Source of the DNA: an uncultured Holophagaceae bacterium
GTDB lineage: Bacteria; Acidobacteriota; Holophagae; Holophagales; Holophagaceae
Assembly: GCA_963717275.1 (NCBI GenBank)
Contig: CAVQVX010000001.1
Location: 2,131,686-2,195,685 of the forward strand
Direction of reading: 5' to 3'
Length of the DNA: 64,000 nt
Numbering within the stretch: the first letter of the stretch is position 1; each line of letters starts with the position of its first letter. Positions 4,430-57,426 of the stretch are shown here, in pieces. The notes beneath the pieces were generated by a model. That model worked only from the letters and a program-made list of their open reading frames with translations. It had not been told where the DNA came from and did no database searches. A program made the translations under genes and the position numbers.

Positions 4430-4954
4430 TCAGATCGTGATGTTGATGGTCCCGGTGTTGCCCGTGATGTCGATGGTGCCGGTGCCGGCGGAAGCATTCG
4501 AAGTGGTCGAGCCGGTCGAGGCGCTCCCCTGGCTTCCCTCGATGATATTGATGGTGCCGGTGTTGCCCGTGATGTTGATGGTGTCGCCCTGGGTCCCGCT
4601 GGTGGCGCTCTGGCCCCCGTGGTGGTGGTGGTGGTGATGCCCCCCCGCCGCCTGCTGGAGCTGTGAGAAGGCCTGCTGGGCGGCCGACAGGTTGCCCGAC
4701 GAAAGGGCCTGGCCCAGCGCCGCGAACGCGCTCTGCACACTGTTCTGGGAAGTGCTGGTCGTGGAGGTGCTGCTCGTGGAGGTGGAGGCCGCCTGGGGTG
4801 CGTTCTGCTGGAGAGCGGCGAAGGCAGTCTTGGCAGCCTGGAGATTGCCGGAGGACAAGGCCTGGCTCAGCTGCTGGAACGGATTGTTGCCCTGGCCCCA
4901 GCTGGTCTGCTGGGTTGAACTGGTGGTGGTATTCAGGTTAAGGCTGCTGGACAT
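4430..4954 (-). CDS. Low-complexity S/T/Q/G-rich protein with His7 tract and internal repeats
   Basis: AGGAGGAG SD; two ALSSGNLxAAxxAF repeats, HHHHHHH, two TI(N/D)ITGNTGTINI repeats. Confidence 0.8.
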   Translation of the reverse strand: MSSSLNLNTTTSSTQQTSWGQGNNPFQQLSQALSSGNLQAAKTAFAALQQNAPQAASTSTSSTSTTSTSQNSVQSAFAALGQALSSGNLSAAQQAFSQLQQAAGGHHHHHHHGGQSATSGTQGDTINITGNTGTINIIEGSQGSASTGSTTSNASAGTGTIDITGNTGTINITI

Positions 4955-7541: not shown

Positions 7542-8375
7542 TCAGTATTTGATCCTTGCAACCGAGCGGAGCTCGTCCGGGGTGGAGGTCCCGAAGCCGA
7601 AGAACTCCAGGTAGGCGGGGATCATCTCGAACAGCATGTCCGTGCCGACCGAATACCGGCAGCCCAGTTCCCGGGCGCAGCGGAGCAGCGGCGTGATCTC
7701 GGTCTTCATGACCACCTCGCCGACGAAGGTCGAGGGCGACAGCCTCGAAACGTCGAAGGGGAGCGGATCCTCGGGGTTCATGCCCATGGGCGTCGCGTTG
7801 ACGACCAGGTCGTAGCCCGCGGGGTCCGAGGAGGCGATCTTCACTTCGAGCTTCGGGTAGTTCGCGGTCAACCGGCCGGCGAGGCCCGTGGCGGCGGCTT
7901 CACGGGTGTCGAACAGCGCGATCGATCCGACCTGGTCCGCGGCGAGGGAAGCGGCGATGGCGCAGCCGACGCCGCCGGATCCGACCACCAGACAGCGGGC
8001 GCCCTTCAGGTTGAAGCCCTGACGCTGGACCGTGCGCGTGAAACCCGTGCCGTCGAACATGTCGGCCAGCAGCGTGCCGTCCGGGCGCTTGAGGAGGGCG
8101 TTGGCCGATCCGGCGATCCTGGCGGTGACGGTGCACTCGTCCGCGAGGCCCACCGTGGTCACCTTGTGCGGCATCGTGATGAGCGCGCCGTGGATGTTGG
8201 TGAACCGGAAAATGGTCCGCAGCGCGTTGGGGTAGTCCTCGGCCTTCACCCCCATCGGCACGACCACCGCGTCGACCTCGTGCTTCTCGAACCACGGGTT
8301 GTAGATCATCGGGGCCTTGAACGACTCCGTTGGATAACCGATGTGTGCCACGACCTTCGTCTTCCCGCTGATCAC
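7542..8375 (-). CDS. Shikimate/quinate dehydrogenase family protein
   Basis: ITMPHK, GSGGVG, VVNATPMGM, GTDMLFEM. Confidence 0.9.
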   Translation of the reverse strand: MISGKTKVVAHIGYPTESFKAPMIYNPWFEKHEVDAVVVPMGVKAEDYPNALRTIFRFTNIHGALITMPHKVTTVGLADECTVTARIAGSANALLKRPDGTLLADMFDGTGFTRTVQRQGFNLKGARCLVVGSGGVGCAIAASLAADQVGSIALFDTREAAATGLAGRLTANYPKLEVKIASSDPAGYDLVVNATPMGMNPEDPLPFDVSRLSPSTFVGEVVMKTEITPLLRCARELGCRYSVGTDMLFEMIPAYLEFFGFGTSTPDELRSVARIKY

Positions 8376-8463
8376 TGGAGCCCCCTTTTTTTCAGGTTTG
8401 TCTTTGCAGGATGCGACATGGCGCAGCCTGCCGCCGTACTTCGACTGTCGACCCGCCGGGCCC

Positions 8464-9309
8464 TTACCGGACCAGCGCGGGCTTGCGATTGATGACCTCC
8501 GCGTGCGCCTTCACGTAGGCCCGGGCCGTTTCCAGGCAGCGGAAGGCATGTTCCGCGTAGCCCGTTTCGAGCACCCGGGCCATGTTGGGCAGTTCGATCG
8601 AATAGACCACCTCGGGGATGTGCTGCAGGATGCTCGCCACGTCGATCCCGCCGTCGCCGAGGTAGAGCCGACCCTCGCGCATGATGCGGATCAGTTCCTC
8701 CCGTTCGGCCGGAATCTCCGCGGGCGCGTCGCACAGGTGCGCGAAGTGGAACCATTTGCGCGGCAGTGCGTCGAGTTCCTCGACCCGGTCGCCCGCGCGC
8801 TGGAAGTGGTGGGTGTCGACCATCAGCCCGGCATTCTCCCGGTTCACGGCCTTGAGGACCTGGACCGCGTCCGCCAGGGTGCGCACGCCGGCGATGGGCA
8901 CGTACTCGAGGTCGACGGTCAGGCCGAAGGGCTTGGCCAGGTCGCACACCTGCCCGAACTTCTCGATGGCGTATTCCCGGTTATCCGTCCAGATGCTCGA
9001 GAGCACCGCGCGGCCGCCCAGTTCGGCCGCGACTTCCATGGCGGGCAGGTACTTGGTGGGGTGCATGTTGTCGTAGATGCGCGCCAGCTCGATGTCATGC
9101 AGCCGGACCCCGGTTTCGGCGAGCGCCCGCTTGGTCTGCTTCATCATCGCCGGGTTGTCGGCCAGCGCGTAGTTCGGCTCGCCCTGCAGCCCCATGAGGA
9201 TGGGGCGGATGCTTACGAAGTCGTAACCCGCCCGGGCCGCGATGTAGGTCATCTCCGGAGGAGGGCAGCCGAGCACTGTCAGATGGGCAAGTGAATACTG
9301 GGTAGCCAT
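8464..9309 (-). CDS. Xylose-isomerase-like TIM-barrel protein (IolE/AsbF superfamily)
   Basis: Metal-ligand pattern DLE..VDTHH..HLCD..R..GDG.ID..SIE. Confidence 0.82.
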   Translation of the reverse strand: MATQYSLAHLTVLGCPPPEMTYIAARAGYDFVSIRPILMGLQGEPNYALADNPAMMKQTKRALAETGVRLHDIELARIYDNMHPTKYLPAMEVAAELGGRAVLSSIWTDNREYAIEKFGQVCDLAKPFGLTVDLEYVPIAGVRTLADAVQVLKAVNRENAGLMVDTHHFQRAGDRVEELDALPRKWFHFAHLCDAPAEIPAEREELIRIMREGRLYLGDGGIDVASILQHIPEVVYSIELPNMARVLETGYAEHAFRCLETARAYVKAHAEVINRKPALVR

Positions 9310-9402
9310 GTCCGTACCCTCCCGAAGATTGAGTTGTGAACCTGCATTTTCCGGCTCCAGCGCGTGCTGGGCCGCATCGATGACTGGCAGAGAGCTTGTT
9401 CG

Positions 9403-11167
9403 TCAGCTGGTGGCCACGTGGTGGACCTTCTTGCCGGGCGAATAGATGTCCATGATGTTCCAGTGCCCGGCGGTGGGGGTCGGGACGTTCTTCATGTACA
9501 CGTCGATTACCACCGGACGCTTGGCCTGGATCGCCTTCTCGATCGCGGGCCTGAGCTCCGCGGCCGACTCGATCCGGACCCCTTCGACGCCGTAGGCCCG
9601 GGCGATGGCGGCGAAATCGGGCGAGCTGCTTTCGCCGTCCTTTTCGAACACGGTCCCGAAGGTCGTCCCGTAGTGGGCGAGTTCCAGCCCGGCGATGGTG
9701 CCGAAGGCGTGGTTGTTCATGATGACCCAGATGACCGGGATGTTGTCGATGAAGGCGGTGGCCAGGGCGGCCGGGTTCTGGCCGAAGCCCCCGTCCCCGA
9801 CCAGGGCGACCACGACGCGGTCGGGCAGGGCCAGCTTGGCGCCCAGCGCGGCCGGCGAGCCGAAGCCCATGGTCGCGAAGCCGCCCGGGGTGAAGATGGT
9901 GCCGGGCTCATAGACCGGGTACTGCTGGGCGAGCCCGTTCTTGTTCCAGCCCACGTCCGTGCAGATGATGGAGTTCCCGGGCAGCGCCTGGCGCAGGTCG
10001 GCCAGGATGCGCTCGGGGTTCATCGGCCAGGCGGCGCTGGTCTGGGCCTCCCGGTGCTCCGCGACGAAGGCCGCGCGGTTGGCGGCCATCTCGGCCAGGA
10101 GCTCCGGCCGCTTGACCCCGTTCGGGGCGAGCCTGCTGCGCGGCCCGCAGCAGGGCTCCGAGCGCGGACTTCAGGTCCGCGACGGCGCCGATGGCGACGG
10201 GATAGTTCCTGCCGATCTCCGAGGGATCGATATCGATGTGCATCAGCTGGGTCGGCGGGAAGTTGAAGGTGTACTCGGCCTCCCAGGAACTGCAGTCGGC
10301 CTCGGAGAAGCGGGTCCCCAGCGCCAGGATCCAATCGGCCCCCTTGCACTTGTCGTTGATGAACTTGGTGCCCCAGAAGCCGGTCATGCCGAGGATCAGC
10401 GGGTGGTCGTCCGGCAGGGCCCCCTTCCCCATCAGCGTGTGGGCGATGGGGAGCTGCAGATGCTCGGCGAACGCGCGCAGTTCGGTCATGGCGTCGGCGA
10501 GCATGATCCCGCCGCCGACGTAGAGCAGCGGGGTCTTGGCCGCCAGGAGCGTCTTGACCATCCGCTCGGCGGTCGCCTCGTCCAGGCACGGCTTGGCGAC
10601 CTGGCGCTGGTTCGCCAGCACCCGCTGGAACAGCGAGGTGTCGATCTTCTTGGAGAAGATGTCCATGGGCACGTCGATCAGCACCGGGCCGGGGCGTCCG
10701 CTTTCGGCCAGGATGAACGCCTTTTCCAGGATCTCCGGGAAGAGATGCGCCGAGTCCACGCGCCAGGCGCGCTTGACGAAGGGCCGATAGATCTCCAGCT
10801 GCGAGGCGTCCGCATGCAGGTTGACCTCCTGGTGCGGGTGCTTGCCGAAGTAGTGGGTCGGCACATCGCCGGCGATCACCACCATGGGGACGGAGTCCAG
10901 CGAAGCGTTGGCCACGCCGGTGGCGGCGTTGGTCAGGCCGGGGCTCAGGTGCGTCAGCAGCACCGACGCCTTGCGGGTCGCGCGGGCGTAGCCGTCGGCC
11001 GCATGGGCCGCAATCTGCTCATGCCGGGTGTTGACGAACTTGATCTTCTTGCTCTTGGCAAGCTCGGCGAGCACCGCGATGTTGGTGTGCCCGCAAAGCC
11101 CGAACACGTGTTCCACCCCGCGCGCTTCGAGGTATTTGACCAACTGGCTGGAGATGAGTTCTTCCAT
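9403..11167 (-). CDS. ThDP-dependent enzyme (AHAS/IolD/cyclohexanedione hydrolase-like); frameshift near 10120
   Basis: VFGLCGHTN, TRHEQIAAHAADGYAR, GRPGPVLIDVP, ThDP motif GDGGF..NN. Confidence 0.9.
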
Positions 11168-11209
11168 ATCGTCGCTCCTTCGAATGATCAACGCTCGCTC
11201 AACGGCCCG

Positions 11210-12670
11210 TCACACTTCGGCGGTCGGGGCTTCCACGGTGTCGTACAGCTCCATGGCGGGATCGTAGAAGGCGCCGAACAGTTCCTTGTCCGACGGCTTG
11301 TCCTCCTTGATCGGCACGGAGACCCAGGTGGTGTTCATGTAGTGCTTGAGATGGACGTTCTCGGAGATGATGTTGCCGCCCCAGGTCCCGCAGCCCAGGC
11401 TGGAGGTCATGGGCATGCCGTTGTTGAAGGCGCCCGCGTTGGCCTTGGACTGCGGCTGGCGCACCATGATCCGGGACACCGGCGCGGCCATGCGCCAGGC
11501 GGTGGATGTGGTCGGCGTCGAAGGAGTAGATGCCGCAGGAGTGGCCCTTGCCGCCCACTTCGTAGATGCTGCCTGCATCATCTGCAGCGCCTGGTCGAAG
11601 CCCTTGTACCGGTAGAGCGCCAGCAGGGTGGTGAGCTTCTCGCTGGAGAACAGGTGCTGTTTGCCGATGCCGTCGCCGTGGACCATGATGAACTTGCGGT
11701 CGGCGGGAATGGAGAACCCGGCGAACTTGGCCAGCGCCTGCGGGGCGATCGCCACGGTGTCGGGGGTGCGGTGCCCCTCCGCGTCCCACATGGCCTTGCG
11801 CAGCAGTTCCTTCTCCTTGGGCGAGGCGAGGTATCCGCCTTCGGCCTGCAGCTGGGCGACCAACTGGTCGAAGATGGTTTCCTCGATGATCAGGTTGCCG
11901 TCGGCGGAGCAGCCGGAACCGAAATCAGAGGTCTTGGAGAGCCGCGTGTTGCGCGCCGCTTCTTCGACGTTGGCGGTTTCGTCGATGATCATGGTCGAAT
12001 TGCCCGAGCCCACGCCGTAGGCCGGGGTGCCGGAGCTGTAGGCGGCCCGGACCATCGGCTGCCCGCCGGTGGCGATGATCACGTCCGCGCGCGCCATCAG
12101 CGCCTGCGACATGGGGATGTTGACCTTGGTCAGGCACTGCAGGATGTCCGCCGGGGCGCCTTCGCGCTCCAGGGCTTCGCGCATCAGGCGCACGGTCTCG
12201 AAGGAGGTCTTCTTGGAGCGGGGGTGGGGCGAGAAGACCACCACGTCGCGCGCCTTGATGCCGTAGATGGCGTTGCCGGCGGGGGTCAGGTCGGGGTTGG
12301 TGGTCGGCACGATGCAGGCCACGATCCCGGCCGGCTTGCCGTACTTGACGATGCCCTTCTCCGGGAGTTCCTCGATGACGCCCACGCTCTTCTGGCGCAG
12401 CGCGTCGCGCAGGACGCCGCGGATCTTCATGCGCTTGCCCATCCGGCTTTCGGGATCGCCCAGCCGGCTCTCCTCGATGCCCATCGCCACCAGGCGCGTG
12501 AAGGTCTTCTTGTTGGCCACGGCCCAGGCCACGGCCTGGCAGAGACGGTCCACCCTGGCCTGGTCATAGGTCTCGATGATTGCCAGCGCCTTCGCTGCGC
12601 GTTCAAACACCTCGTCCAGTTCCTGCTGCTGCTCGGCAGTGAGCGGTTTCTGCGTTTCAGTTGCGGCCAT
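11210..12670 (-). CDS. CoA-acylating aldehyde dehydrogenase (SauS/AdhE-N-like); compensated double frameshift about 11490-11570
   Basis: PTTNP, ATGGQPMVRAAYSSGTPAYGVGSGN, SKTSDFGSGCS, LGCGTWGGN..SEN; alternative frame gives GKGHSCGIYS. Confidence 0.88.
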   Translation of the reverse strand: MAATETQKPLTAEQQQELDEVFERAAKALAIIETYDQARVDRLCQAVAWAVANKKTFTRLVAMGIEESRLGDPESRMGKRMKIRGVLRDALRQKSVGVIEELPEKGIVKYGKPAGIVACIVPTTNPDLTPAGNAIYGIKARDVVVFSPHPRSKKTSFETVRLMREALEREGAPADILQCLTKVNIPMSQALMARADVIIATGGQPMVRAAYSSGTPAYGVGSGNSTMIIDETANVEEAARNTRLSKTSDFGSGCSADGNLIIEETIFDQLVAQLQAEGGYLASPKEKELLRKAMWDAEGHRTPDTVAIAPQALAKFAGFSIPADRKFIMVHGDGIGKQHLFSSEKLTTLLALYRYKGFDQALQMMQAASTKWAARATPAASTPSTPTTSTAWRMAAPVSRIMVRQPQSKANAGAFNNGMPMTSSLGCGTWGGNIISENVHLKHYMNTTWVSVPIKEDKPSDKELFGAFYDPAMELYDTVEAPTAEV

Positions 12671-12797
12671 GTTGATCACTCCTTCGGTTGTGGTGGTGCG
12701 TCCAGGACCTGCTTGAGCGGCTATCCACGGATGTGCGCGCGGCTCCCGGGGCAGCCCGCAGGTCTCTGATCGAAGCCTGCCCCGGTGCCGTGTGGCT

Positions 12798-12836
12798 CCC
12801 TCCAATGGCGATTGCCAGCGCGGTGCCATTGGAGGG
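12798..12836. promoter_or_regulatory. 12-bp inverted repeat in the leader of the catabolic operon
   Basis: CCCTCCAATGGC...GCCATTGGAGGG. Confidence 0.45.
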
Positions 12837-12899
12837 ATATCAGTTTCATCTTTGAACCCTGACGCCTATCAGTTTACCGTTGCGCCCAAAGCCCAAAAA

Positions 12900-12936
12900 G
12901 TACCGTTTTTATATGCATCGCATATCGGCCCGGTAT
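12900..12936 (-). promoter_or_regulatory. Double LysR-type operator (unit A)
   Basis: GTAC-N7-ATAT then ATAT-N7-GTAT, starts 22 nt apart; aligns with units at 14510, 27533, 30299, 33652. Confidence 0.75.
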
Positions 12937-12937
12937 A

Positions 12938-14278
12938 TCAGGCGCCCTTCTTCCTCCCGAGTTCCGCCATCGGCACGTTGTAGGTTTCGCGGAAGGTCAG
13001 CGCGGCGGTCGCCGAGATGAGCGCGGTCACGCACGTGAAGATGGCGACCGCGGTCCAGCCGCCCGACTTGAACAGGGACGCCGCGATGGCCGGCGCGAAC
13101 CCGCCCAGCGCGAAGCCGATCTGGGTCCCGATCGCCGTCCCGGAGAGCCGGTAGCGGGTGTCGAACTGCTCGTTGAACATCGCCGGCCAGATGCCGTTGT
13201 TGGCGCTGTAGACGACCCCCGACAGGAGCAGGCCGAGCACGAAGATGAGCGGGATGTTCGTGGTCTGGATGGCCCAGAGGAAGGGCCAGATCAGGATCGC
13301 GCACCCGATCGTGCCGAAGATGAAGATCGGCTTGCGCCCGACGCGGTCGGCGATCGCCGCCCAGGCCGGGATCGCGCCGAGCGCGATGACGTTCGCCAGG
13401 ACCACCATGGTCAGCATCGTCGCCTTGGCGATATGCATCACGTTCACGCCGTAGGACAGGGTGTAGACCGCGAAAACGGTGCTCACCACGGAGTAGAAGC
13501 AGGCGAAGATGATCTTGACCACGCCGCCGGGGTTTTCCCGGAACAGCACGGCGACGGGCAGCTTGACCTTGACGGCCTGGGGCGCCTTCTGCGCCGCCTT
13601 GAACGCGGGGGTCTCCTCGAGCGAGCGCCGGATCCAGATGCCGACGCCGACGACCAGGGCGCTGAAGTAGAAGGGGATGCGCCAGCCCCAGCTGAGCAGC
13701 GAAGCCTCCGGCATCGCGCCGATGGGCAGGAACACCAGGGTCGCAAGGATCAGGCCGCCCTGGGTGCCGCTGAGGGTCCAGCTGGTGAAGAAGGCCCGGC
13801 GGTGCGCGGGGGCGTGCTCGAGCGACATGGAGTTCGCGCCGGCCTGCTCACCGGCGGCGGAGAGCCCCTGCAGCAGTCGGCAGACGACCAGGAGGATCGG
13901 AGCCAGAATGCCCACCTGCTGGTAGGTCGGGAGGCAGCCCACCAGGAAGGTGGAGATGCCCATCAGGATGAGGGTCAGGATGAGCACCTTCTTGCGCCCG
14001 TACTTGTCGCCCAGGTGGCCGAGGAAGAATGATCCGATCGGGCGGGCGACGTAGCCGACCCCGAAGGTGGCGAGCGCGGCGATCGTGCCCACCATGGGAT
14101 CCTTCGACGGGAAGAACAGCTTGCCGAAGATCAGCGCCGCGGCGGTGCCGTATACGAAGAAATCGTAGTATTCGAGCGCGCTGCCGATCCATGCGGCGAT
14201 GGCGGCCTTCTTCGGAGTCCTGATACCTTCGGGCTCCTGCGAACCTTCGGCTGGAGACGTGGTTGGCTCGGTAAGCAT
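12938..14278 (-). CDS. MFS metabolite:H+ symporter, ShiA-like (copy 1)
   Basis: GSALEYYDF, RPIG..GHLGDKYGRK, RLLQGLSAAGE, WGWRIPF. Confidence 0.93.
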   Translation of the reverse strand: MLTEPTTSPAEGSQEPEGIRTPKKAAIAAWIGSALEYYDFFVYGTAAALIFGKLFFPSKDPMVGTIAALATFGVGYVARPIGSFFLGHLGDKYGRKKVLILTLILMGISTFLVGCLPTYQQVGILAPILLVVCRLLQGLSAAGEQAGANSMSLEHAPAHRRAFFTSWTLSGTQGGLILATLVFLPIGAMPEASLLSWGWRIPFYFSALVVGVGIWIRRSLEETPAFKAAQKAPQAVKVKLPVAVLFRENPGGVVKIIFACFYSVVSTVFAVYTLSYGVNVMHIAKATMLTMVVLANVIALGAIPAWAAIADRVGRKPIFIFGTIGCAILIWPFLWAIQTTNIPLIFVLGLLLSGVVYSANNGIWPAMFNEQFDTRYRLSGTAIGTQIGFALGGFAPAIAASLFKSGGWTAVAIFTCVTALISATAALTFRETYNVPMAELGRKKGA

Positions 14279-14509
14279 TTGTCCTCCCTATGTGGTCGCG
14301 ACGGACCTGGTTTGTTCTGCTGCGTGATGGGACTGCCTTCGGGCGGCTGCGAGCGTGGCACGGCAAGCCCACGCTGGGTCCCGGGGGACCGGCATGGACC
14401 GATGGACGGGTTGGGTCGGTAGGAACATTCCTGGAAGCAGCACTGCACGATCCAGGATTCAGGCAAAAAGGATTGCTAGAGGTATACCCTTTTGGTCAAG
14501 GCCCATAAA

Positions 14510-14546
14510 ATACCGTTTATATATGTGTGGTATACCACACCGATAT
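14510..14546 (-). promoter_or_regulatory. Double LysR-type operator (unit B) with adjacent TTGACC -35
   Basis: ATAC-cgtttat-ATAT and ATAC-cacaccg-ATAT. Confidence 0.75.
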
Positions 14547-14560
14547 ACTTAATAATTATT

Positions 14561-15487
14561 TCATGTTTTTATATTGACCTCAGTATGCTTGCCGGCCTTG
14601 CCCTTTCCATGCAGGATCTCCCGCATCACCTCCTGGGCCGCGGGCGTCAGGTAGCGGTCCGGAAGGTGGATGATGGCCGGCTGGATGCCGTCCAGGATGC
14701 CTTCGAGGTTGCGCACCTCGAACCGTTCAAAGAAATTCTTCGGTATCAGGTTCAGCGGGAGGATGGCCGCGGCGCGCACCCCGGCGTCCAGGATCCCCAG
14801 GATCACGCTGACGTTCGGGCTGTCCAGCAGGATGCGCGGCGTGATCCCGTGCCTCTGGAATTCCCGGCGCAGCTGGTCGTAGGTCCTCCCGCCGTGCCAG
14901 AGCCTCTGGAGCATCAGCGGGATGTCCTGCAGGACCTTGACGCCGAAGGTCCCGTCGGCCGGCGACGGGATCAGGCCGGTCGGGTACACGACGCAGAAAT
15001 GGTCCACCGGAAGCGGCTGGACATCGAATATCTCCTTTTTCGTGGGCAGCAGGACGAGCGCGAAATCGAGGTTCCGGGTCTCCACATGCTCCTCGAGGGT
15101 CGTGCTGTCGGCCACCAGGACGCGGAACTGCAGCAGGGGAAACCTGGAGGAGAGCTTCGGCACCACTTCCGTGAAGTAGCGCAGGAAGGAGATCGACAGG
15201 CCGATGAAGATCCGGCCCGTGACCCCGACCGCGGCGTTCCGGACCTCCGTGGGGATCTCCGTGAGCTGGTTGAGCGCCTGGCGCGCCCGGTCGTATAGCA
15301 CCTTTCCGGCTTCCGTCACCTGCCAGATGTGGCCCTTCCGGACGATGAGCTCCACGCCCAGTTCGTCCTCCAGCTCCTTGAGGCGCAGGCTCAGGGGCGG
15401 CTGGGAGATGTTCAGGATCTTCGCGGCCCGGCTGATCTGCCCCTGCTCGACGATCGTGCAGAAATACGTTAGCCGTTTCGAGTCCAA
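14561..15487 (-). CDS. LysR-family regulator (copy 1), TTG start
   Basis: LTYFCTIVEQGQISRAAKILNISQPPLS HTH; start inferred from paralog at 25941. Confidence 0.92.
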   Translation of the reverse strand: MDSKRLTYFCTIVEQGQISRAAKILNISQPPLSLRLKELEDELGVELIVRKGHIWQVTEAGKVLYDRARQALNQLTEIPTEVRNAAVGVTGRIFIGLSISFLRYFTEVVPKLSSRFPLLQFRVLVADSTTLEEHVETRNLDFALVLLPTKKEIFDVQPLPVDHFCVVYPTGLIPSPADGTFGVKVLQDIPLMLQRLWHGGRTYDQLRREFQRHGITPRILLDSPNVSVILGILDAGVRAAAILPLNLIPKNFFERFEVRNLEGILDGIQPAIIHLPDRYLTPAAQEVMREILHGKGKAGKHTEVNIKT

Positions 15488-25035: not shown

Positions 25036-25941
25036 TTATGGATGCGGCTGATCTCTTCCGTGCAGGATCTCCCGCATGACCTCCCTGGCCGCAGTCGTCA
25101 GATAACGGTCCGGAAGATTGATGATTCCTGGCTTGACGCCGTGCAGGATCCCTTCAAGGTCACGGACCTCAAACCGCTCACGGATGCTCTTGGGGATGAG
25201 ATTCATAGGGAGGATGGCCGCAGCGCGCACCCCGGTGTCCAGGGATCCCAGGATCACACTGATGTCCGGGCTATCCAGAAGGACGTTCGGCGTGATTCCT
25301 TGCCTCCGCAATTCCCGCCAAAGCTGGTCGTGAATACCCTTCCCACCGTGCCAGAGCCTCTGGAGCATCAGCGGGATGCCCTGCAGGACCTTGAGTCCGA
25401 AGGTTCCATCCGGCGACGAAGGGATCAGACCGGTCGGATACACGACGCCGAAATGGACCATCGGGAGCGACTGGACCTCGAATATTTCTTTTGTCGTGGG
25501 GAGCAGAACGATCGCGAAATCAAGGTTCCTGGACTCGACTTGCTCTTCAAGGGTCGCACTGTCCTCCACCAAAATCCGGAACTGCAGCATGGGAAACCGG
25601 GAGGAAATCCTGGGCACCATTTCTGTGAAGTAGGACATGAAGGAAATCGACAGGCCGACGGAGATGCGTCCCTTGACACCGTCCGCTGCGTTCCGGACCT
25701 CCATGGGGATCTCCGTGATCTGGTTAAGCGCCTGCCGCGCCAGATCGTAAAGCACCTTCCCGGCTTCTGTCACCTGCCAGGTGCTCCCCTTCCGGACGAT
25801 GAGATCCACTCCCAGTTCTTCTTCCAACTCATTGAGGCGCGCGCTCAAGGCCGGCTGGGCGACCCCCAGAAATTTCGCGGCCCGGCTGATCTGTCCGCTT
25901 TCGACGATCGTGCAGAAATATGTCAGCCGTTTCGTATCCAA
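25036..25941 (-). CDS. LysR-family regulator (copy 2)
   Basis: Colinear paralog of 14561..15487. Confidence 0.92.
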   Translation of the reverse strand: MDTKRLTYFCTIVESGQISRAAKFLGVAQPALSARLNELEEELGVDLIVRKGSTWQVTEAGKVLYDLARQALNQITEIPMEVRNAADGVKGRISVGLSISFMSYFTEMVPRISSRFPMLQFRILVEDSATLEEQVESRNLDFAIVLLPTTKEIFEVQSLPMVHFGVVYPTGLIPSSPDGTFGLKVLQGIPLMLQRLWHGGKGIHDQLWRELRRQGITPNVLLDSPDISVILGSLDTGVRAAAILPMNLIPKSIRERFEVRDLEGILHGVKPGIINLPDRYLTTAAREVMREILHGRDQPHP

Positions 25942-25982
25942 ATGCCCACCTCCGCCTCAGCAAAGGCGTGCCAAGCCTGCAG

Positions 25983-27323
25983 CTACGCGCCCTTCTTCCT
26001 TCCGAGCTCAGCCATCGGCACGTTGTAGGTTTCGCGGAAGGTCAGCGCGGCGGTCGCCGAGATGAGCGCGGTCACGCACGTGAAGATGGCGACCGCGGTC
26101 CAGCCGCCCGACTTGAACAGGGACGCCGCGATGGCCGGCGCGAACCCGCCCAGCGCGAAGCCGATCTGGGTCCCGATCGCCGTCCCGGAAAGCCGGTAGC
26201 GGGTGTCGAACTGCTCGTTGAACATCGCCGGCCAGATGCCGTTGTTGGCGCTGTAGACGACGCCCGACAGGAGCAGGCCGAGCACGAAGATGAGCGGGAT
26301 GTTCGTGGTCTGGATGGCCCAGAGGAAGGGCCAGATCAGGATCGCGCAGCCGATCGTGCCGAAGATGAAGATCGGCTTGCGCCCGACGCGGTCGGCGATC
26401 GCCGCCCAGGCCGGGATCGCGCCGAGCGCGATGACGTTCGCCAGGACGACCATGGTCAGCATCGTCGCCTTGGCGATGTGCATCACGTTCACGCCGTAGG
26501 ACAGGGTGTAGACCGCGAAAACGGTGCTCACCACGGAGTAGAAGCAGGCGAAGATGATCTTGACCACGCCGCCGGGGTTTTCGCGGAACAGCACGGCGAC
26601 GGGCAGCTTGACCTTGACGGCCTGGGGCGCCTTCTGCGCCGCCTTGAACGCGGGGGTCTCCTCGAGCGAGCGCCGGATCCAGATGCCGACGCCGACGACC
26701 AGGGCGCTGAAGTAGAAGGGGATGCGCCAGCCCCAGCTGAGCAGCGAAGCCTCCGGCATCGCGCCGATGGGCAGGAACACCAGGGTCGCCAGGATCAGGC
26801 CGCCCTGGGTGCCGCTGAGGGTCCAGCTGGTGAAGAAGGCCCGGCGGTGCGCGGGGGCGTGCTCGAGCGACATGGAGTTCGCGCCGGCCTGCTCACCGGC
26901 GGCGGAGAGCCCCTGCAGGAGGCGGCAGACGACCAGGAGGATCGGTGCCAGGATGCCCACCTGCTGGTAGGTCGGGAGGCAGCCCACCAGGAAGGTGGAG
27001 ATGCCCATCAGGATGAGGGTCAGGATGAGCACCTTCTTGCGCCCGTACTTGTCGCCCAGGTGGCCGAGGAAGAATGATCCGATCGGGCGGGCGACGTAGC
27101 CGACCCCGAAGGTGGCGAGCGCGGCGATCGTGCCCACCATGGGATCCTTCGACGGGAAGAACAGCTTGCCGAAGATCAGCGCCGCGGCGGTGCCGTATAC
27201 GAAGAAATCGTAGTATTCGAGCGCGCTGCCGATCCATGCGGCGATGGCGGCCTTCTTCGGAGTCCGGATACCTTCGGGCTCCTGCGAACTTCCGGCCGGA
27301 GGCGTGGCTGGTTCGGCAAGCAT
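25983..27323 (-). CDS. MFS ShiA-like transporter (copy 2)
   Basis: Protein identical to 12938..14278 apart from the first about 12 residues. Confidence 0.93.
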   Translation of the reverse strand: MLAEPATPPAGSSQEPEGIRTPKKAAIAAWIGSALEYYDFFVYGTAAALIFGKLFFPSKDPMVGTIAALATFGVGYVARPIGSFFLGHLGDKYGRKKVLILTLILMGISTFLVGCLPTYQQVGILAPILLVVCRLLQGLSAAGEQAGANSMSLEHAPAHRRAFFTSWTLSGTQGGLILATLVFLPIGAMPEASLLSWGWRIPFYFSALVVGVGIWIRRSLEETPAFKAAQKAPQAVKVKLPVAVLFRENPGGVVKIIFACFYSVVSTVFAVYTLSYGVNVMHIAKATMLTMVVLANVIALGAIPAWAAIADRVGRKPIFIFGTIGCAILIWPFLWAIQTTNIPLIFVLGLLLSGVVYSANNGIWPAMFNEQFDTRYRLSGTAIGTQIGFALGGFAPAIAASLFKSGGWTAVAIFTCVTALISATAALTFRETYNVPMAELGRKKGA

Positions 27324-27532
27324 AGGTCATCCCTTCACGGCCTCGACGGACCGATTGTCATGAGTGGAAACGTTGTTGCAAAGATACAGAGCATCTGCGA
27401 TTCGTCTTGCAGGACACCCCATGGACGGAGAGCAAGGGTATGGCGGTATGAGCAGTTTTGGGAGAACAGGGGTTAGGACTGCAAAGGTAATGGAGTGCTA
27501 GTTTTATAGCACATCAGCTCAAGGCACATGGA

Positions 27533-27569
27533 ATACCGTTATTCTATGCTTTGCATACTCTACCGGTAT
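27533..27569 (-). promoter_or_regulatory. Double LysR-type operator (unit C)
   Basis: ATAC-cgttatt-CTAT and perfect ATAC-tctaccg-GTAT. Confidence 0.75.
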
Positions 27570-27685
27570 ATTCCAAAACACCCGGCGGGCTGTTCGGGGT
27601 GGCGCAATGCCCCGCCCCTTATGGCAGCATGGCATCGGGATTGTCCAGATCACGAAGGGTGGCCTGGAGCGTGTCTCCCATCGCC

Positions 27686-50765: not shown

Positions 50766-51335
50766 ATGACCAGTGCGCCCCACCATTCCAGCCATGGGGA
50801 AACGCTGAAGGCCCGGGTCGAACAGGCCACCGGGGTCAAACTGAACCACTGCTACCAGTGCGGCAAGTGCGCCGCGGGCTGCCCGGTGGCCGAGGACATG
50901 GACCTGACCTCGTGCCAGATCCTGCGCCTGGTCCAGTTCGGCGACCCCGCCTGGGACCGGCAGGCCCTGCCAGAGCGAAGGCATCTGGCTTTGCCTGGCC
51001 TGCGAGACCTGCTCCACCCGCTGCCCCCAGGAGGTGGAGGTGCCCAAGGTGATGGACTTCCTGCGCACCGAGGCGGTGCGCCAGGACCTGGCCCACCCCA
51101 GGAGCAGGGACATCCTGGCGTTCCACCGCGCCTTCATGGATTCGGTGCGCGAGACCGGGCGGCTCTACGAGATCGGCCTGGTGGCCGACTACAAGCTGCG
51201 GAGCCGGCACTTCCTCAAGGACGTGATGCTCGCCCCCAAGATGTTCACCCGCGGCAAGCTTCCCCTCGTTCCGCACCTGATCCAGGGCCGGGACGCCATC
51301 AAGCGCATCTTCAAGCGCACGCTCGGGGCCCATGA
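50766..51335 (+). CDS. hdrC: Heterodisulfide reductase subunit C (frameshift near 50970)
   Basis: CYQCGKCAAGCP and IWLCLACETCSTRCP. Confidence 0.88.
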   Translation: MTSAPHHSSHGETLKARVEQATGVKLNHCYQCGKCAAGCPVAEDMDLTSCQILRLVQFGDPAWDRQALPERRHLALPGLRDLLHPLPPGGGGAQGDGLPAHRGGAPGPGPPQEQGHPGVPPRLHGFGARDRAALRDRPGGRLQAAEPALPQGRDARPQDVHPRQASPRSAPDPGPGRHQAHLQAHARGP

Positions 51336-51352
51336 CGCGAAAAGGAGCAGCC

Positions 51353-52214
51353 ATGAGGATCGGCTACTATCCCGGTTGTTCCCTGCTGGGTTCCAGCAGG
51401 GAATTCGACGAATCCGTCCGGGCCGTCGCCCAGGCCATCGGCCTGGAACTGGTCGAAGTGCCCGACTGGAACTGCTGCGGCGCCAGCAGCGCCCACGTGC
51501 TGGACCACCGGCTGTCGCTGTCGCTGCCGGCGCGGATCCTGGCCCAGGCCGAAGCCGCGGGCCTCGCCGAGGTGCTGGCCCCCTGCGCCGCCTGCTACAA
51601 CCGCCTGACCTCGGCCCGGGCCGCGCTGGAGGCGGACCCCGCCCTGGCCGCGGAGATCGCCGCCGTCATCGAGATGCCGGTCACCGGCCAGGTGAAGGTG
51701 GTGAACGTGCTGGAGGTGCTGGACCGGTTCAAGGAGGTCATCCAGGAGAAGACGGTGGCCCCCTTCGCCCGCAAGGTGGCCTGCTACTACGGCTGCCTCC
51801 TGGTGCGGCCGCCCAAGGTGGTGGCCTTCGACCGGCCCGAGGATCCCATGTCCATGGACCGCATGATGGCCGCGGCGGGCGCCGAGGCGATCGAATGGAA
51901 CTTCAAGACCGAGTGCTGCGGCGCGGCCTTCTCGGTCACCCGCACCGACCTGGTGGCCCGGATGTCGGGCCGGATCGTGGCCGACGCGGCCCGCCGCGGC
52001 GCCGAAGCGATCGTCGTGGCCTGCCCCATGTGCCAGTCCAACCTGGACATGCGCCGGCCCGAGATCAACGCCCGGCTGGGCGCAGGACCACCAGGTGCCG
52101 GTCATCTTCATCACCCAGGCCCTCGGGCTGGCCCTCGGCCTCGCCCCCACGGCCCTGGGCCTGCAGCGGCACATGGTGCCCGCCCTGGCCCTGCAACCTT
52201 CCGCCACCGTCTGA
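51353..52214 (+). CDS. hdrB: Heterodisulfide reductase subunit B (frameshift near 52085)
   Basis: YYPGC, DWNCCG, YYGC, ECCG, ACPMCQSNLD (CCG domains). Confidence 0.9.
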
Positions 52215-52226
52215 GAGAGGCCGACC

Positions 52227-54219
52227 ATGTCACGAATCGGCGTATTCACCTGCCACTGCGGCGAAAACATCGGCGGGACCGTGGATTGCGGCAAGGTTGC
52301 CGAATGCACCCGCACCATCCCCGGCGTGGTCCACAGCGTGGACTACAAGTACATGTGCTCGGACCCCGGCCAGAGCATGATCAAGGACGCCATCAAGGAG
52401 CACGGCCTCACCGGCGTGGTGGTGGCGGCCTGCTCCCCGCGCATGCACGAGCCCACCTTCCGCAACGCCGTGGCCGAGGCCGGGCTGAACCCGTACCTGT
52501 GCGAGATGGCCAACCTGCGCGAGCACTGTTCCTGGGTGCACGAAAAGGGCGAGGTCACCACCGCGAAGGCCGCCGACCTGGTGCGGGTGATGGTGGAGAA
52601 GGTCAAGCGCAACCAGCCGCTGCAGCCCATCCACGTGCCGGTCACCAAGCGGGCCCTGGTGCTGGGCGGCGGCATCGCCGGCATCCAGGCCGCGCTGGAC
52701 ATCGCCAACAGCCGGCCACAAGGTGGTGCTGGTGGAGAAGTCGCCCTCCATCGGCGGGCACATGAGCCAGCTTTCGGAGACCTTCCCCACCCTGGACTGC
52801 TCCCAGTGCATCCTCACCCCGCGCATGGTGGAGGCGGCCCGGCACCCCAACATCACCCTCATGACCTACGCCGAGCTGGAGAAGCCTTCGGGCTTCATCG
52901 GCAACTTCAAGGCCACCATCCGCAAGAAGGCGCGCCAGGTGGACGAGAAGCTCTGCACCGGCTGCGGCCTGTGCACCACCAAGTGCCCCAACAAGAAGAT
53001 CCCCGACGAGTTCAACGAGGGGCTGTCGACCCGCGGCGCGATCTACGTGCCGTTCCCCCAGGCGGTGCCCAACAAGCCGGTGATCGACAAGCTCAACTGC
53101 ACCTTCTACAAGACCGGCAAGTGCAAGGTCTGCGAGAAGATGTGCCCGACCAAGGCGATCCGCTTCGACCAGGAGGACGAGCTGGTCACCCTGGACATCG
53201 GCGCCATCGTGCTGGCCACCGGCTTCAAGGTGATGCGCACCGACCAGTTCCCCGAGTACGGCTACGGCAGGTACAAGGACGTGCTGGACGGCCTGCAGTT
53301 CGAGCGCCTCGCCTCGGCCTCCGGCCCCACCGCCGGCGCCATGAAGCGCCCCAGCGACGGCAAGGAGCCCGAGACGGTGGTCTTCGTGGCCTGCTCCGGA
53401 TCGCGCGACCGCTCCAAGGGCGTGCCGTACTGCTCCAAGGTCTGCTGCATGTACACCGCCAAGCACGCCATGCTCTACAAGCACAAGATGCACCACGGCA
53501 AGGCCTACGTCTTCTACATGGACATCCGCTCCTCGGGCAAGGACTACGACGAGTTCGTGCGCCGGGCCATCGAGGAGGACGACGTCAGCTACATCCGCGG
53601 CCGGGTCTCGCGCATCTACGAGGAGGACGGCAAGCTGGTGGTGATGGGCGCCGACACCCTGCAGAACGGCCGGCCGGTGGAGATCAGGGCCGACATGGTG
53701 GTGCTGGCCACCGCCGTGCAGGCCCAGGACGGCAGCGAGCAGCTGGCCCAGAAGCTGCACGTGAGCTACGACCCCTACCACTTCTTCGCCGAGGCCCACC
53801 CCAAGCTCAAGCCGGTGGAGACCAACACCGCCGGGATCTTCCTGGCCGGCGCCTGCCAGGCGCCCCGGGACATCCCCGAGACCGTGGCCCAGGCCAGCGG
53901 CGCGGCCGCCAAGGTGGCCGCGCTGTTCAGCCAGGACGAGCTGACCCGGGAGCCGCAGATCGCCGTGGTCAACCGCCTCCCGCCCCCGGCCTTCTCCTAC
54001 TGCGTGGGCTGCTTCCTGTGCCAGAGCGCCTGCCCCTACCAGGCCATCGAGCAGGAGGAGATCAAGGGCCGGGACGGCAGCGTGCTCAAGACCGTCGCCA
54101 AGGTCAACCCGGGCCTGTGCCAGGGCTGCGGCACCTGCGTCGCCACCTGCCGCACCAAGGCCATCGACATCCAGGGCTTCAGCAACGAACAGATCTTCGC
54201 CGAAATCATGACGCTATGA
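52227..54219 (+). CDS. hdrA: Heterodisulfide reductase subunit A (frameshift near 52712)
   Basis: RIGVFTCHCG, ACSPRMHE, NLREHCSWVH, GGGIAG, TFPTLDCSQC, CSKVCCMY, ferredoxin motifs. Confidence 0.95.
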
Positions 54220-54228
54220 AATTTCCAT

Positions 54229-54312
54229 GGGGGACCGCGCGCTCGTTCCACTCGCTCTCCGTCCCCCACACCCCACTTCAAGCCCGGGCGAAGCCCGGAC
54301 CTGAAGTCCACC
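54229..54312. repeat. Dispersed two-hairpin REP-like element, copy 2 (between hdrA and flxD)
   Basis: Homologous to 42401..42487. Confidence 0.75.
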
Positions 54313-54325
54313 CGGGACCCCTGCC

Positions 54326-54763
54326 ATGACAGAACCCTTCGAACCGAAAATCACCGCCTTCGTCTGCAACTGGTGCACCTACGCCGGCGCCGACCTGACC
54401 GGCACCAGCCGCATCAAGTACCAGTCCAACGTCCGGGTGCTGCGCCTGCCCTGCACCGGCCGCATCGACTTCATGCTGCTGGCCAAGGCCTTCGCCCGGG
54501 GCGCGGACGGCATCATCATCTCCGGCTGCCACCCCAACGACTGCCACTACACCTCGGGCAACTACCACGCCCGGCGGCGCTGGATGGTCTACCGCAACCT
54601 GATGGACTTCATGGGCATCGACACGCAGCGGATCACCTTCTCCTGGGTGTCGGCGGCCGAGGGCGCCAAGTGGGCGGAGCTGGTGAACGAAGTCACCACC
54701 AGCATCCGGGCCATGGGCCCCTACGCCGAGTACAAGGAACTGGCCGCAGCGGGCGTCGAGTGA
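54326..54763 (+). CDS. flxD: MvhD-like [2Fe-2S] subunit (FlxD)
   Basis: FVCNWCTYAGAD, PCTGR, GCHPNDCHY..GN, WVSAAEG. Confidence 0.88.
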   Translation: MTEPFEPKITAFVCNWCTYAGADLTGTSRIKYQSNVRVLRLPCTGRIDFMLLAKAFARGADGIIISGCHPNDCHYTSGNYHARRRWMVYRNLMDFMGIDTQRITFSWVSAAEGAKWAELVNEVTTSIRAMGPYAEYKELAAAGVE

Positions 54764-54770
54764 GGCGAGC

Positions 54771-55565
54771 ATGGAACTGAGAGAGAAAGCCAAACAGCTT
54801 CTGGAATCCGGCGACGTCAAGGCGGTGCTCGGCTTCGAGCCCGGCACCCACGGCGCCCGCCGGCCGGCCTTCGCCCGCTCCGCCGCGCGCGCCGAGCGCC
54901 TGGTCCATGACGGCGAGCAGAACCTCGCCAGCTACGTCACCCGCAAGGAAGTGAAGCGCATGGGCCGGGTGGCCGTGGCCGCCAAGGCCCCGGTGCTGCG
55001 CGCCCTGCTCCAGCTCATGGCCGAGCGCCAGATCAAGGAGCAGGACGTCCTGCCCCTGGCGGTGGACGCCGCCGGCCAGGTGAAGGAACTGGCCACGGCC
55101 CAGGCCATGGAGGAACACCTGGCCCTGGAGGCCCAGGCCATCCCGCCGGCGGACCGGGAGCTCATGGACCGGCTGAACGGGATGACCCGGCAGGAGCGCT
55201 GGGCGTTCTGGCAGAAGGAGCTCTCCCGCTGCATCAAGTGCTACGCCTGCCGCAACAGCTGCCCCATGTGCTACTGCGACCACTGCACCATGGACTGCAA
55301 CCGGCCCCAGTGGGTGCCGGTGCCCAGCCACGCCCTGGGCAACCTGGAGTACCACATGGTCCGCGCCATGCACCTGGCGGGCCGCTGCGTGGAGTGCGGG
55401 GACTGCGGACGGGCCTGCCCCGTGGGCATCCCCATCCACCTGCTCACCTTCAACGCCGAAGAGAGCGTGCACGCGCAGTTCGGCCAGAAGGCCGGCGCCT
55501 CATCGAAGCTGGACTACGCCTTGTCCACCTTCCGCCCCGACGACAAAGAGACTTTCATCCGGTAG
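54771..55565 (+). CDS. flxC: 4Fe-4S dicluster protein (FlxC)
   Basis: CIKCYACRNSCPMCYC, RCVECGDCGRACP; position in the operon. Confidence 0.8.
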   Translation: MELREKAKQLLESGDVKAVLGFEPGTHGARRPAFARSAARAERLVHDGEQNLASYVTRKEVKRMGRVAVAAKAPVLRALLQLMAERQIKEQDVLPLAVDAAGQVKELATAQAMEEHLALEAQAIPPADRELMDRLNGMTRQERWAFWQKELSRCIKCYACRNSCPMCYCDHCTMDCNRPQWVPVPSHALGNLEYHMVRAMHLAGRCVECGDCGRACPVGIPIHLLTFNAEESVHAQFGQKAGASSKLDYALSTFRPDDKETFIR

Positions 55566-55573
55566 GGTGCTCC

Positions 55574-56578: not shown

Positions 56579-56586
56579 GTGAAGAC

Positions 56587-57426
56587 ATGAGCGAAAAGAA
56601 CATCTACCTGCCCACCCTCATGCGGATCGCCAGGATCACCGAGGAGGCCCCCAGCGTGCGCACCTTCCGCCTGGAGTTCATGGACGAGGCCGCGGCCGCC
56701 GCCTTCGACTTCAGGACCGGCCAGTTCGGCCTCTACAGCGCCTTCGGCGAAGGCGAAAGCACCTTCTGCATCGCCTCCAGCCCCACCCGCAAGGGCTACA
56801 TCGAGTGCACCTTCCGCGAAGTGGGGCGGGTGACGGCGGGGCTGGCCGACAAGGAGGTGGGTGACGTCGTGGGCTTCCGGGGGCCCTACGGCAACGTCTT
56901 CCCGATCGAGGACTGGAAGGGCAGGAACCTCCTCTTCATCGCCGGCGGCATCGCCCTGCCGCCCCTGCGCAGCGTCATCTGGAACTGCCTGGACCTGCGC
57001 GACTGGTTCAAGGACATCACCATCGTCTACGGCGCCCGGTCCGTGGCCGACCTGGTCTACAAGCACGAACTCAAGGAGTGGGCGGAGCGGCCGGACGTGA
57101 ACCTGCTGTGCACCGTCGACCCCGGCGGCGAGACGCCGGACTGGACCGGCAAGGTGGGCTTCGTCCCGCTCATCGTCGAGCAGGCCAATCCCAGCCCCGA
57201 AAACACCGTCGCGCTGGTGTGCGGGCCGCCGATCATGATCAAGCTGACCCTGCCCGTGCTGCAGAAGCTGGGCTTCACCCCCGGCAGCATCTACACGACG
57301 CTGGAGAACCGCATGAAGTGCGGCGTGGGCAAGTGCGGGCGCTGCAACACGGGCAAGAGCTATGTCTGCAAGGACGGGCCGGTGTACACCCTTGAGCAGT
57401 TGAGCCAGCTGCCGGCGGAATATTAG
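56587..57426 (+). CDS. flxA: FAD/NAD-binding [2Fe-2S] subunit, AsrB/PyrK-like (FlxA)
   Basis: RGPYGN, IAGGIALPPLR, CGPPIMI, LENRMKCGVGKCGRC..CKDGPV. Confidence 0.85.
   Translation: MSEKNIYLPTLMRIARITEEAPSVRTFRLEFMDEAAAAAFDFRTGQFGLYSAFGEGESTFCIASSPTRKGYIECTFREVGRVTAGLADKEVGDVVGFRGPYGNVFPIEDWKGRNLLFIAGGIALPPLRSVIWNCLDLRDWFKDITIVYGARSVADLVYKHELKEWAERPDVNLLCTVDPGGETPDWTGKVGFVPLIVEQANPSPENTVALVCGPPIMIKLTLPVLQKLGFTPGSIYTTLENRMKCGVGKCGRCNTGKSYVCKDGPVYTLEQLSQLPAEY

Follow-up and report, generated by a model that had tools for sequence, protein, structure and literature searches.

Quinate and shikimate are abundant plant acids, and to our knowledge the only genetically described route for their breakdown runs via protocatechuate and needs O2 for ring cleavage. 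Fermenters that avoid aromatic intermediates have been known for decades, among them Propionivibrio limicola and Ilyobacter insuetus, which ferment quinate or shikimate by a non-aromatic physiology. Here, we analyzed 64,000 nucleotides of DNA from an uncultured, wetland-type Holophagaceae bacterium (GCA_963717275.1, contig CAVQVX010000001.1, positions 2,131,686 to 2,195,685; hereafter the window) and a cluster of six co-oriented minus-strand genes within it, whose order and span (7542-15487) are as a preliminary description of this DNA had them. The genes encode a LysR-family regulator, a ShiA-like major facilitator superfamily (MFS) transporter, a CoA-acylating aldehyde dehydrogenase (ALDH), a thiamine diphosphate (ThDP)-dependent enzyme, a metal-dependent triose-phosphate isomerase (TIM) barrel, and a shikimate-dehydrogenase-family (SDH) oxidoreductase (Table 1). 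The preliminary description knew of no genetic account of an O2-independent, ring-opening route for such acids; we likewise found none, nor a description of the genes behind the physiology of the two fermenters, in the literature searched (titles and the beginnings of abstracts, with few subscription papers). It had named Propionivibrio pelophilus as a quinate fermenter; this is the wrong species, as a reference title in PMC2822220 gives P. limicola as the hydroaromatic fermenter.

Several described systems resemble parts of this cluster. In myo-inositol catabolism, a dehydrogenase (IolG), a metal-dependent TIM barrel (IolE, with IolI as an accessory), and a ThDP enzyme (IolD) act in series without O2; the cluster has the same series, and its ThDP enzyme carries a G-H-x-N loop as IolD does. 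Unlike in the inositol system, the ThDP enzyme forms a separate clade, the neighbors are quinate/shikimate genes, and CoA activation followed by a citryl-type lyase is predicted for the final part, in place of IolB/IolC/IolJ. CDH (cyclohexane-1,2-dione hydrolase) is, according to PMC12247030, a ThDP enzyme that cleaves a cyclic 1,2-dione. The cluster enzyme has the same fold as CDH but differs in its predicted substrate and gene context, and is 25%-26% identical to it. With the aerobic protocatechuate route (QuiA/YdiB, AroD/AroQ, and QuiC1/QuiC2/AsbF) and the Listeria qui operons, the cluster has in common entry enzymes, LysR control, ShiA-like transport, and the structural subgroup of the TIM barrel; however, it is predicted to avoid aromatization, and those systems have no counterpart of its ThDP enzyme, its ALDH, or the lyase of relatives. 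Citryl-CoA lyase, and the pair formed by (R)-citramalyl-CoA lyase and succinyl-CoA:citramalate CoA-transferase, are alike in protein families (including CoA-transferase family III) and in their retro-Claisen chemistry, whereas the predicted substrate of the cluster is the C7 homologue homocitryl-CoA, of which we found no mention in the literature searched, mostly without subscription papers.

We directly observed the gene content, the protein families, conserved neighborhoods and co-occurrence, and an operator-like site in common, and from these we infer the reactions as follows. The MFS protein would import quinate or shikimate under LysR control, and quinate would be oxidized to 3-dehydroquinate (DHQ) by the SDH-family enzyme; the entry of shikimate would be by way of dehydroshikimate and a dehydroquinase (in this genome, aroD at C1:4871494). 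The TIM barrel would eliminate the C5 hydroxyl of DHQ by IolE/QuiC chemistry, at a stage when the ring cannot yet aromatize, to give 1-hydroxy-3,4-dioxocyclohexane-1-carboxylate. The ThDP enzyme would then hydrolyze the C3-C4 bond, as IolD and CDH do (the CDH product is an aldehyde-acid). DHQ opened in this way after loss of its C5 hydroxyl would become homocitrate semialdehyde, whose CoA ester would be the one-carbon homologue of citryl-CoA. The acylating ALDH, or elsewhere a non-acylating ALDH with a family III CoA-transferase, would produce this homocitryl-CoA, and a lyase of the citryl-CoA-lyase or HMG-CoA-lyase (HMGL) family would split it into acetyl-CoA and 2-oxoglutarate. The lyase substrate points to DHQ because, of DHQ and dehydroshikimate, only DHQ has the tertiary hydroxyl that is needed.

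We give this exact sequence of intermediates, from uptake to O2-independent and non-aromatic breakdown of quinate and shikimate by the six genes, an even chance; that the same products are reached is likely if a variant via 4-dehydroquinate, discussed below, is counted too. More broadly, the cluster probably supplies the genes so far missing for quinate/shikimate catabolism that is non-aromatic and O2-independent. This would be a second, widespread pathway that reaches acetyl-CoA and 2-oxoglutarate in five steps and includes three undescribed reactions: those of a DHQ-modifying TIM barrel, of a new ThDP ring-opening enzyme, and of a homocitryl-CoA lyase drawn from as many as three unrelated folds. 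The general logic of the preliminary description (oxidation, a TIM-barrel step, ThDP ring opening, and conversion of the aldehyde to an acyl-CoA, starting from quinate/shikimate and without O2) fits all of the comparative evidence, but the TIM barrel, which it took to be of the IolE/AsbF type, may be an IolE-type dehydratase, an IolI-type isomerase, or a QuiC-type protocatechuate former. The lyase of relatives extends that reading and, at the level of protein families, points to homocitryl-CoA as the acyl-CoA.

The substrate class is indicated by gene neighborhoods. Stretches encoding a relative of the ThDP enzyme numbered 398 in genomes and 579 in metagenomes, and the best 80 of each were compared; the genome set came from Betaproteobacteria, Bacillaceae, Holophagaceae, and a few other groups, and the metagenome set was examined after the lyase pattern described below had been noticed in the genome set. 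Neighbors were counted from tblastn passes at identity thresholds set by the analyst. Three same-genus relatives are possibly also among the 80 genome loci and are therefore not counted as independent. A related TIM barrel lay within 10 kb of the ThDP gene at 71 of the 80 genome loci which, together with the 398 stretches, argues that the cluster is not a product of chance. At least one quinate/shikimate gene was present at 67/80 genome loci and 47/80 metagenome loci (34/42 of those of at least 12 kb). In the genome set, these genes included a dehydroquinase of type I or II (51/80), an SDH of the cluster type (39/80), shikimate kinase (16/80), and the two halves of a QuiC-like protein (27/80 and 25/80). 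The SDH and a Zn-dehydrogenase were interchangeable, with 37 loci having the former and 20 the latter at stricter thresholds, and none having both. Orthologues of the ThDP enzyme (93%-94% identical) were patchy: three of the 11 same-genus genomes had one, as did one of the 150 further genomes from this phylum, and the cluster SDH type was found in exactly those three same-genus genomes. Among named records, those closest to the ThDP enzyme are Holophagaceae metagenome-assembled genomes, and in a quick tree it branched next to Rhodocyclaceae copies. The enzyme or a close paralogue was also present in 23 of 54 genomes of the genus of G049, a genus-level count that does not tell species apart.

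Some loci depart from the standard layout. At L013, L016, L025, and others (25-27 of the 80), the QuiC1 counterpart is split into two genes whose order is swapped (the HPPD-like one precedes the TIM barrel); they lie behind a PcaR-type IclR regulator and are divergent from the cluster. In versions that have no TIM barrel (L139, L159, L198, L200, L206, L217, L221, and L231), a PQQ dehydrogenase and/or a ThuA-like gene stands beside the ALDH, CoA-transferase, citryl-CoA lyase, and ThDP enzyme, and ThuA-like proteins may replace the TIM-barrel step there.

The nature of the product is suggested by the lyases of relatives. In the genome set, a citryl-CoA-lyase-family gene was present at 27/80 loci and an HMGL-family gene at 24/80, and no locus had both; the corresponding figures in the metagenome set were 36/80, 15/80, and 0/80. 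When the lyase type was mapped onto the ThDP tree (116 loci of at least 12 kb), the label changed 15 times for citryl-CoA lyase and 14 times for HMGL, of which 11 and 10 changes were forced by well-supported branches, indicating repeated replacement of the lyase rather than one ancestral split. The citryl-CoA-lyase, HMGL, and CitE-type folds are unrelated, but each of them cleaves a 3-hydroxyacyl-CoA to a ketone and acetyl-CoA. A third lyase, of the CitE/HpcH family, was found beside a distant (43%) paralogue of the ThDP enzyme. The family assignments hold at model level: the Azoarcus cluster protein scored 461 bits on the citryl-CoA lyase model NF004864 (cut-off 261), the best PDB match of the L025 protein was 6hxp, and the HMGL-family proteins of relatives scored 290-334 bits on NF004283 (cut-off 246), on which the candidate of this genome scored 273.

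The ALDH and CoA-transferase genes show a matching pattern. An acylating ALDH was present at 57 and a non-acylating ALDH at 16 of the 80 genome loci, never both, and a family III CoA-transferase occurred at nine loci, none of which had an acylating ALDH. Such a distribution would be expected if cleavage required the ALDH product to be converted to a CoA ester first. In Azoarcus sp. KH32C, the CoA-transferase, citryl-CoA lyase, ThDP enzyme, SDH, and aroD form one annotated run; in Priestia megaterium, the ThDP locus is without TIM barrel and lyase, and a TIM barrel, a CoA-transferase, and an HMGL stand together ∼22-26 kb away. L146 and L147 each hold the 43% paralogue (with the motif GQCGHTN in L146) beside an acylating ALDH, the CitE/HpcH-family lyase, and a TRAP binding protein, and are possibly a sister pathway for another ring acid.

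We compared the ThDP enzyme with the families to which it might belong. Its GLCGHTN motif, pointed out in the preliminary description, was invariant in 44 of 44 aligned homologues. On the acetohydroxyacid synthase (AHAS) model TIGR00118, an intact orthologue (P0004) scored 424.9 bits against a cut-off of 538.35, and AHAS landmarks with known functional roles were replaced: the PGG loop, FQE, GMHG, the FDDR arginine, and the MVRQW tryptophan read CGH, HQE, GFWG, FSEA, and TIAGL, respectively. Scores were also below the cut-offs of the IolD model TIGR04377 (249-265 bits; cut-off 715) and of the Xsc model (197+114 bits for the two halves of the split gene; cut-off 620). With IolD, the enzyme has the G-H-x-N loop in common (CGHTN versus FGHGN in six of six IolD rows), and its C-terminal tryptophan motif resembles that of IolD. 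H27 presumably corresponds to His28 of CDH. In a quick tree of 23 rows, which gave long-branch warnings, the enzyme formed its own clade apart from IolD (SH-like approximate likelihood ratio test support 99). A fold search with its model did not separate the ThDP families, and CDH was tied in Z with many other ThDP enzymes. These tests, along the lines of the phylogenetic check proposed in the preliminary description, place the enzyme outside AHAS, Xsc, and IolD. All five relatives checked hold a true IolD separate from the ThDP enzyme, and inositols are therefore unlikely substrates.

It is extremely improbable that the ThDP enzyme simply works as an acetolactate synthase, or that it and the ALDH handle sulfoacetaldehyde. 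AHAS models and structures do score highest overall for the ThDP enzyme, the first- and second-ranked models for the two ALDH types are SauS and SafD, and a TauE-family gene is seen repeatedly, at seven loci. However, all of these model scores lie under their cut-offs, including those on the SauS model NF047625 (462 bits, for the intact, 90.5% identical ALDH orthologue of L009, and 472 bits; cut-off 600); the AHAS loop, arginine, and tryptophan are gone, with ordinary AHAS-like genes present elsewhere in the same genomes; and no taurine or sulfonate gene was seen among the annotated recurrent neighbor families. Membership in either family, which the preliminary description had named as an outcome that would overturn its reading, thus fails on the model cut-offs.

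The ALDH is closest to acylating types, as its four best NCBIfam models and 15 PDB matches are of the AdhE/EutE/SucD/PduP types. Its best PDB match is the acylating succinate-semialdehyde dehydrogenase 8cei from a clostridial source (E 2e-87), to which its catalytic cysteine loop SGCSADG and histidine motif GHSCGI align.

The TIM barrel had been assigned to the IolE/AsbF type. Its predicted model (pLDDT, a per-residue confidence score, of 95) was, however, closer in fold to Lmo2234/QuiC2 (2g0w, Z 30.9), IolI (Z 30.1), and QuiC1 (5hmq, Z 29.4) than to IolE and AsbF (Z 23.7 and 23.6); the IolE entries, at Z 23.4-23.7, have the same fold but rank below IolI and QuiC. By sequence, IolI was the best match (E 1e-11), and identity to the QuiC1, QuiC2, and AsbF dehydroshikimate dehydratases was 18%-24%. 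The E-D-H/Q-E metal site is kept, with E135, D165, and E239 invariant and H168 present in at least 90% of 46 rows. An ESM Atlas search returned only PF01261 clusters without names. On the QuiC model, the TIM barrel scored 40 bits, as against 135-156 for separate QuiC-like genes beside the cluster; such a gene accompanies the TIM barrel at about one-third of the loci, indicating that the two are not redundant.

These folds bear on the possibility of a protocatechuate-forming SDH and TIM barrel, after the manner of the Listeria qui2 or Pseudomonas QuiC route, with the ThDP enzyme and ALDH acting separately, for example from 2-oxoglutarate through succinate semialdehyde to succinyl-CoA. We regard this as very unlikely. 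In its support, QuiC2 and QuiC1 are among the nearest folds, the best ALDH structure acts on succinate semialdehyde, and a PcaR-type regulator stands at 29/80 genome loci; Listeria, moreover, forms protocatechuate without using it, according to bioRxiv 10.1101/2025.04.08.647683. Against it, the TIM barrel scores far below the neighboring QuiC-like genes on the QuiC model, a search of five genomes for an intradiol dioxygenase found none (0/5), and two things would be left without a reason: the absence of the CoA-transferase from all 57 genome loci with an acylating ALDH, and the source of the lyase substrate.

IolI, as best sequence match and tied for best fold, favors a different variant, in which 4-dehydroquinate is formed by a TIM barrel acting as an IolI-type isomerase, or by the dehydrogenase if this oxidizes C4 directly; ThDP-dependent C3-C4 cleavage with phosphoketolase-like loss of water would then yield homocitrate semialdehyde and the same end products with no aromatizable dione. 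The remodeled pocket of the SDH and the PQQ dehydrogenase or ThuA-like genes at several loci that have no TIM barrel are in line with it. We nevertheless consider it fairly unlikely: the G-H loop is held in common with IolD, a cyclic-dione hydrolase; the elimination enzymes QuiC1 and QuiC2 tie with IolI in fold; and we know of no POX-family enzyme that performs such a double reaction of cleavage and water loss.

The SDH-family enzyme keeps its catalytic residues (T67, K71, N92, and D108, invariant in 23 rows) and scored 138 bits on the AroE/YdiB model (cut-off 252). Its best structural match, 4k28, we take to be RifI2. Its altered pocket leaves room for a further explanation, which we judge unlikely, that ring opening and lyase are right and the substrate or intermediate is another: it could be some other cyclic hydroxy acid, the route could run from dehydroshikimate, or the C5 hydroxyl could be retained in a product that leads to 4-hydroxy-2-oxoglutarate. 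The loss of the carboxylate-binding serines (see below) is consistent with this, the dehydroquinase at 51/80 loci also fits flux toward dehydroshikimate, and extra Gfo/Idh/MocA dehydrogenases recur at the loci. Yet the enoyl-CoA hydratase family that a dehydroshikimate route requires recurs at just three of the clustered loci, no recurrent 2-oxo-acid aldolase was seen among the neighbors, and these are overwhelmingly quinate/shikimate genes.

Returning to breakdown via DHQ, the cyclic dione, and homocitryl-CoA, a number of observations weigh against it. At the level of single enzymes, overall sequence and fold place the ThDP enzyme no closer to IolD or CDH than to AHAS or Gcl. The nearest structures of the TIM barrel are two dehydroshikimate (protocatechuate-forming) dehydratases and one isomerase, so that it could be a protocatechuate former or an isomerase, and the dione itself could lose water to protocatechuate. 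Where AroE has S-K-S, the SDH has F19-K20-A21, losing the carboxylate-binding serines, and it has M251 for a conserved Gln; RifI2 itself has weak activity on shikimate and only trace activity on quinate. At the level of loci, the TIM barrel is missing from 15/42 metagenome loci of at least 12 kb, and each of the five genomes tested for dioxygenases has one LigB-family match. No lyase was found in the 64-kb window or in the eight rows of its ThDP clade, and neither lyase is present at 29/80 loci of each set; the hand-picked loci L139 and L154 hold both, and an acylating ALDH and a CoA-transferase occur together at 4/80 metagenome loci. A search for displaced lyases found HMGL homologues of just 36%-45% in four of five genomes. 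Of five genomes with neither lyase at the cluster locus, three have a citryl-CoA lyase (55%-57%) elsewhere, with no cluster gene within ∼8 kb, and the Bacillus-type citryl-CoA lyase was present in none of four others searched.

For this genome, the only HMGL-subfamily candidate found (C1:4439215-4440105) also speaks against the proposal: it is just 36%-41% identical to the cluster lyases, and a similar gene is present in 11 of 11 same-genus genomes, with or without the cluster. It is thus not cluster-specific, and its role in the cluster pathway is a guess. Its operon (C1:4438052-4443151, L092), beside a LysR gene, consists of a homoisocitrate-dehydrogenase-like gene, the HMGL, a family III CoA-transferase, and genes for both subunits, large and small, of a homoaconitase-like enzyme. 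In favor of the proposal, this CoA-transferase is 58%-63% identical to that of the Azoarcus cluster; the operon may be an undescribed homocitrate/2-oxoadipate route. The same-genus genomes also have citrate synthase and LysA-like genes. No operator-like site of the kind described next was found at this operon among the top 25 matrix matches.

An operator-like T-N11-A palindrome precedes the MFS gene, the ALDH gene, and a duplicate MFS gene that starts at 27323. With a site matrix trained on these three window sites and on sites from relatives (best control score 20.0), we found further matches in this genome before aroD-SDH2-aroKB (39.5), a third ShiA-like MFS gene (23.6), and two porin genes (60.4 and 27.2), and before two further window genes (42.1 and 26.6). 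The first two belong to one region (C1:4871494-4876516, L093) in which aroD, a second RifI2-like SDH (68%), and a gene fusing shikimate kinase and DHQ synthase converge with the third MFS gene, and both promoters carry the site. We considered whether this SDH paralogue is the housekeeping aroE and rejected this, as only relatives with the cluster have it, and a different SDH is present in four relatives. The porin genes (C1:1445857-1447350 and 1278973-1280466) are 497-aa Porin_4 paralogues and candidate outer-membrane quinate channels; a related porin gene adjoins the cluster in L010 (14082-15533). The two further window sites, at 30336 and 33689 (minus), lie before a region encoding a cadherin-like/CHB_HEX surface protein and a MacB/FtsX ABC transporter region. 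A scan for sigma-70 promoters returned no sites, and terminators were at chance level.

Table 1. Coordinates of the cluster genes, their operator-like sites, and the duplicated genes in the window
Feature	Position	Strand	Remarks
LysR-family regulator	14561..15487	-	PF00126 and PF03466; TTG start at 15487; 81% to LysR of related loci; likely activator of the regulon
Operator-like site (LysR type) before the MFS gene	14499..14547	-	TATRC-N3-RCATA-N4-AACGGTA; in matrix training set
ShiA-like MFS metabolite/H+ symporter	12938..14278	-	NF007414 (shikimate transporter) 330 bits, cut-off 538; TIGR00883 381 bits; likely quinate/shikimate uptake
Second operator-like site, before the ALDH gene	12889..12937	-	In matrix training set
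CoA-acylating ALDH	11210..12670	-	Assembly indels at 11494 and 11570; predicted homocitrate-semialdehyde dehydrogenase (acylating)
ThDP-dependent enzyme, own subfamily	9403..11167	-	GLCGHTN; assembly frameshift at 10135; predicted ring-opening hydrolase
Metal-dependent TIM barrel	8464..9309	-	PF01261; E135, D165, H168, H191, R214, E239; predicted 3-dehydroquinate dehydratase forming a cyclic dione, or isomerase
RifI2-like SDH-family oxidoreductase	7542..8375	-	Best PDB match 4k28, E 1e-44; predicted quinate/shikimate dehydrogenase; remodeled substrate pocket
Second MFS copy	25983..27323	-	97.7% DNA identity over 1366 bases; own operator-like site at ∼27522-27570
Second LysR paralogue	25036..25941	-	82% DNA identity over 889 bases

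In the assembly, one extra base breaks the ThDP gene, and the ALDH gene has a short out-of-frame stretch between its two indels. The extra base at 10135 was absent in short-read contigs of runs X1 and X2, that at 11494 in contigs of X1, X2, X4, and X18, and that at 11570 in contigs of X1 and X4, and an intact 587-aa ThDP protein (P0002) that is 99.6%-99.7% identical exists; the three frameshifts are therefore assembly errors. Single-base frameshifts are also frequent in the window at 70-2476 and genome-wide (kynureninase, aldo-keto reductase, citrate synthase, and lysA), which, with the 68.7% completeness of the 5.7-Mb two-contig assembly, indicates long-read indel errors. Contigs of the RNA run X18 were mostly 90%-95% alike to this DNA and thus represent DNA or RNA of relatives, not evidence of cluster expression.

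In the duplicated segment (25036-27570), a near-identical MFS copy is followed by a diverged LysR gene, the order of the two being opposite to that in the main cluster. The absence of a dioxygenase from the window, noted in the preliminary description, held: no dioxygenase family was matched among the 64 further window open reading frames scanned. A kynureninase gene is present at 70-1324. Genes at 51332-57426 for CCG-domain, Fe-S, FlpD/MvhD, and NAD-binding proteins resemble an Hdr-Flx electron-bifurcating cluster and fit an anaerobic lifestyle. A RES-Xre toxin-antitoxin-like pair lies beside a Mutator transposase (59623-60968), and a 174-aa low-complexity reading frame rich in Ser, Thr, and Gln (4430-4954) has a poly-His run and repeated ITGNTGTINI units.

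Overall, the gene cluster is real and widespread, and its proposed pathway is apparently undescribed. If our reading is true, the cluster would explain the non-aromatic quinate/shikimate fermentation of Propionivibrio limicola and Ilyobacter insuetus, and homocitryl-CoA would become a catabolic intermediate. Several hundred proteins annotated as acetolactate synthases, HMG-CoA lyases, and citryl-CoA lyases would need re-annotation. The genes would also supply markers for the turnover of plant litter in anoxic peat, wetland, and sludge, and would name a route of carbon loss relevant to shikimate-producing Bacillaceae.

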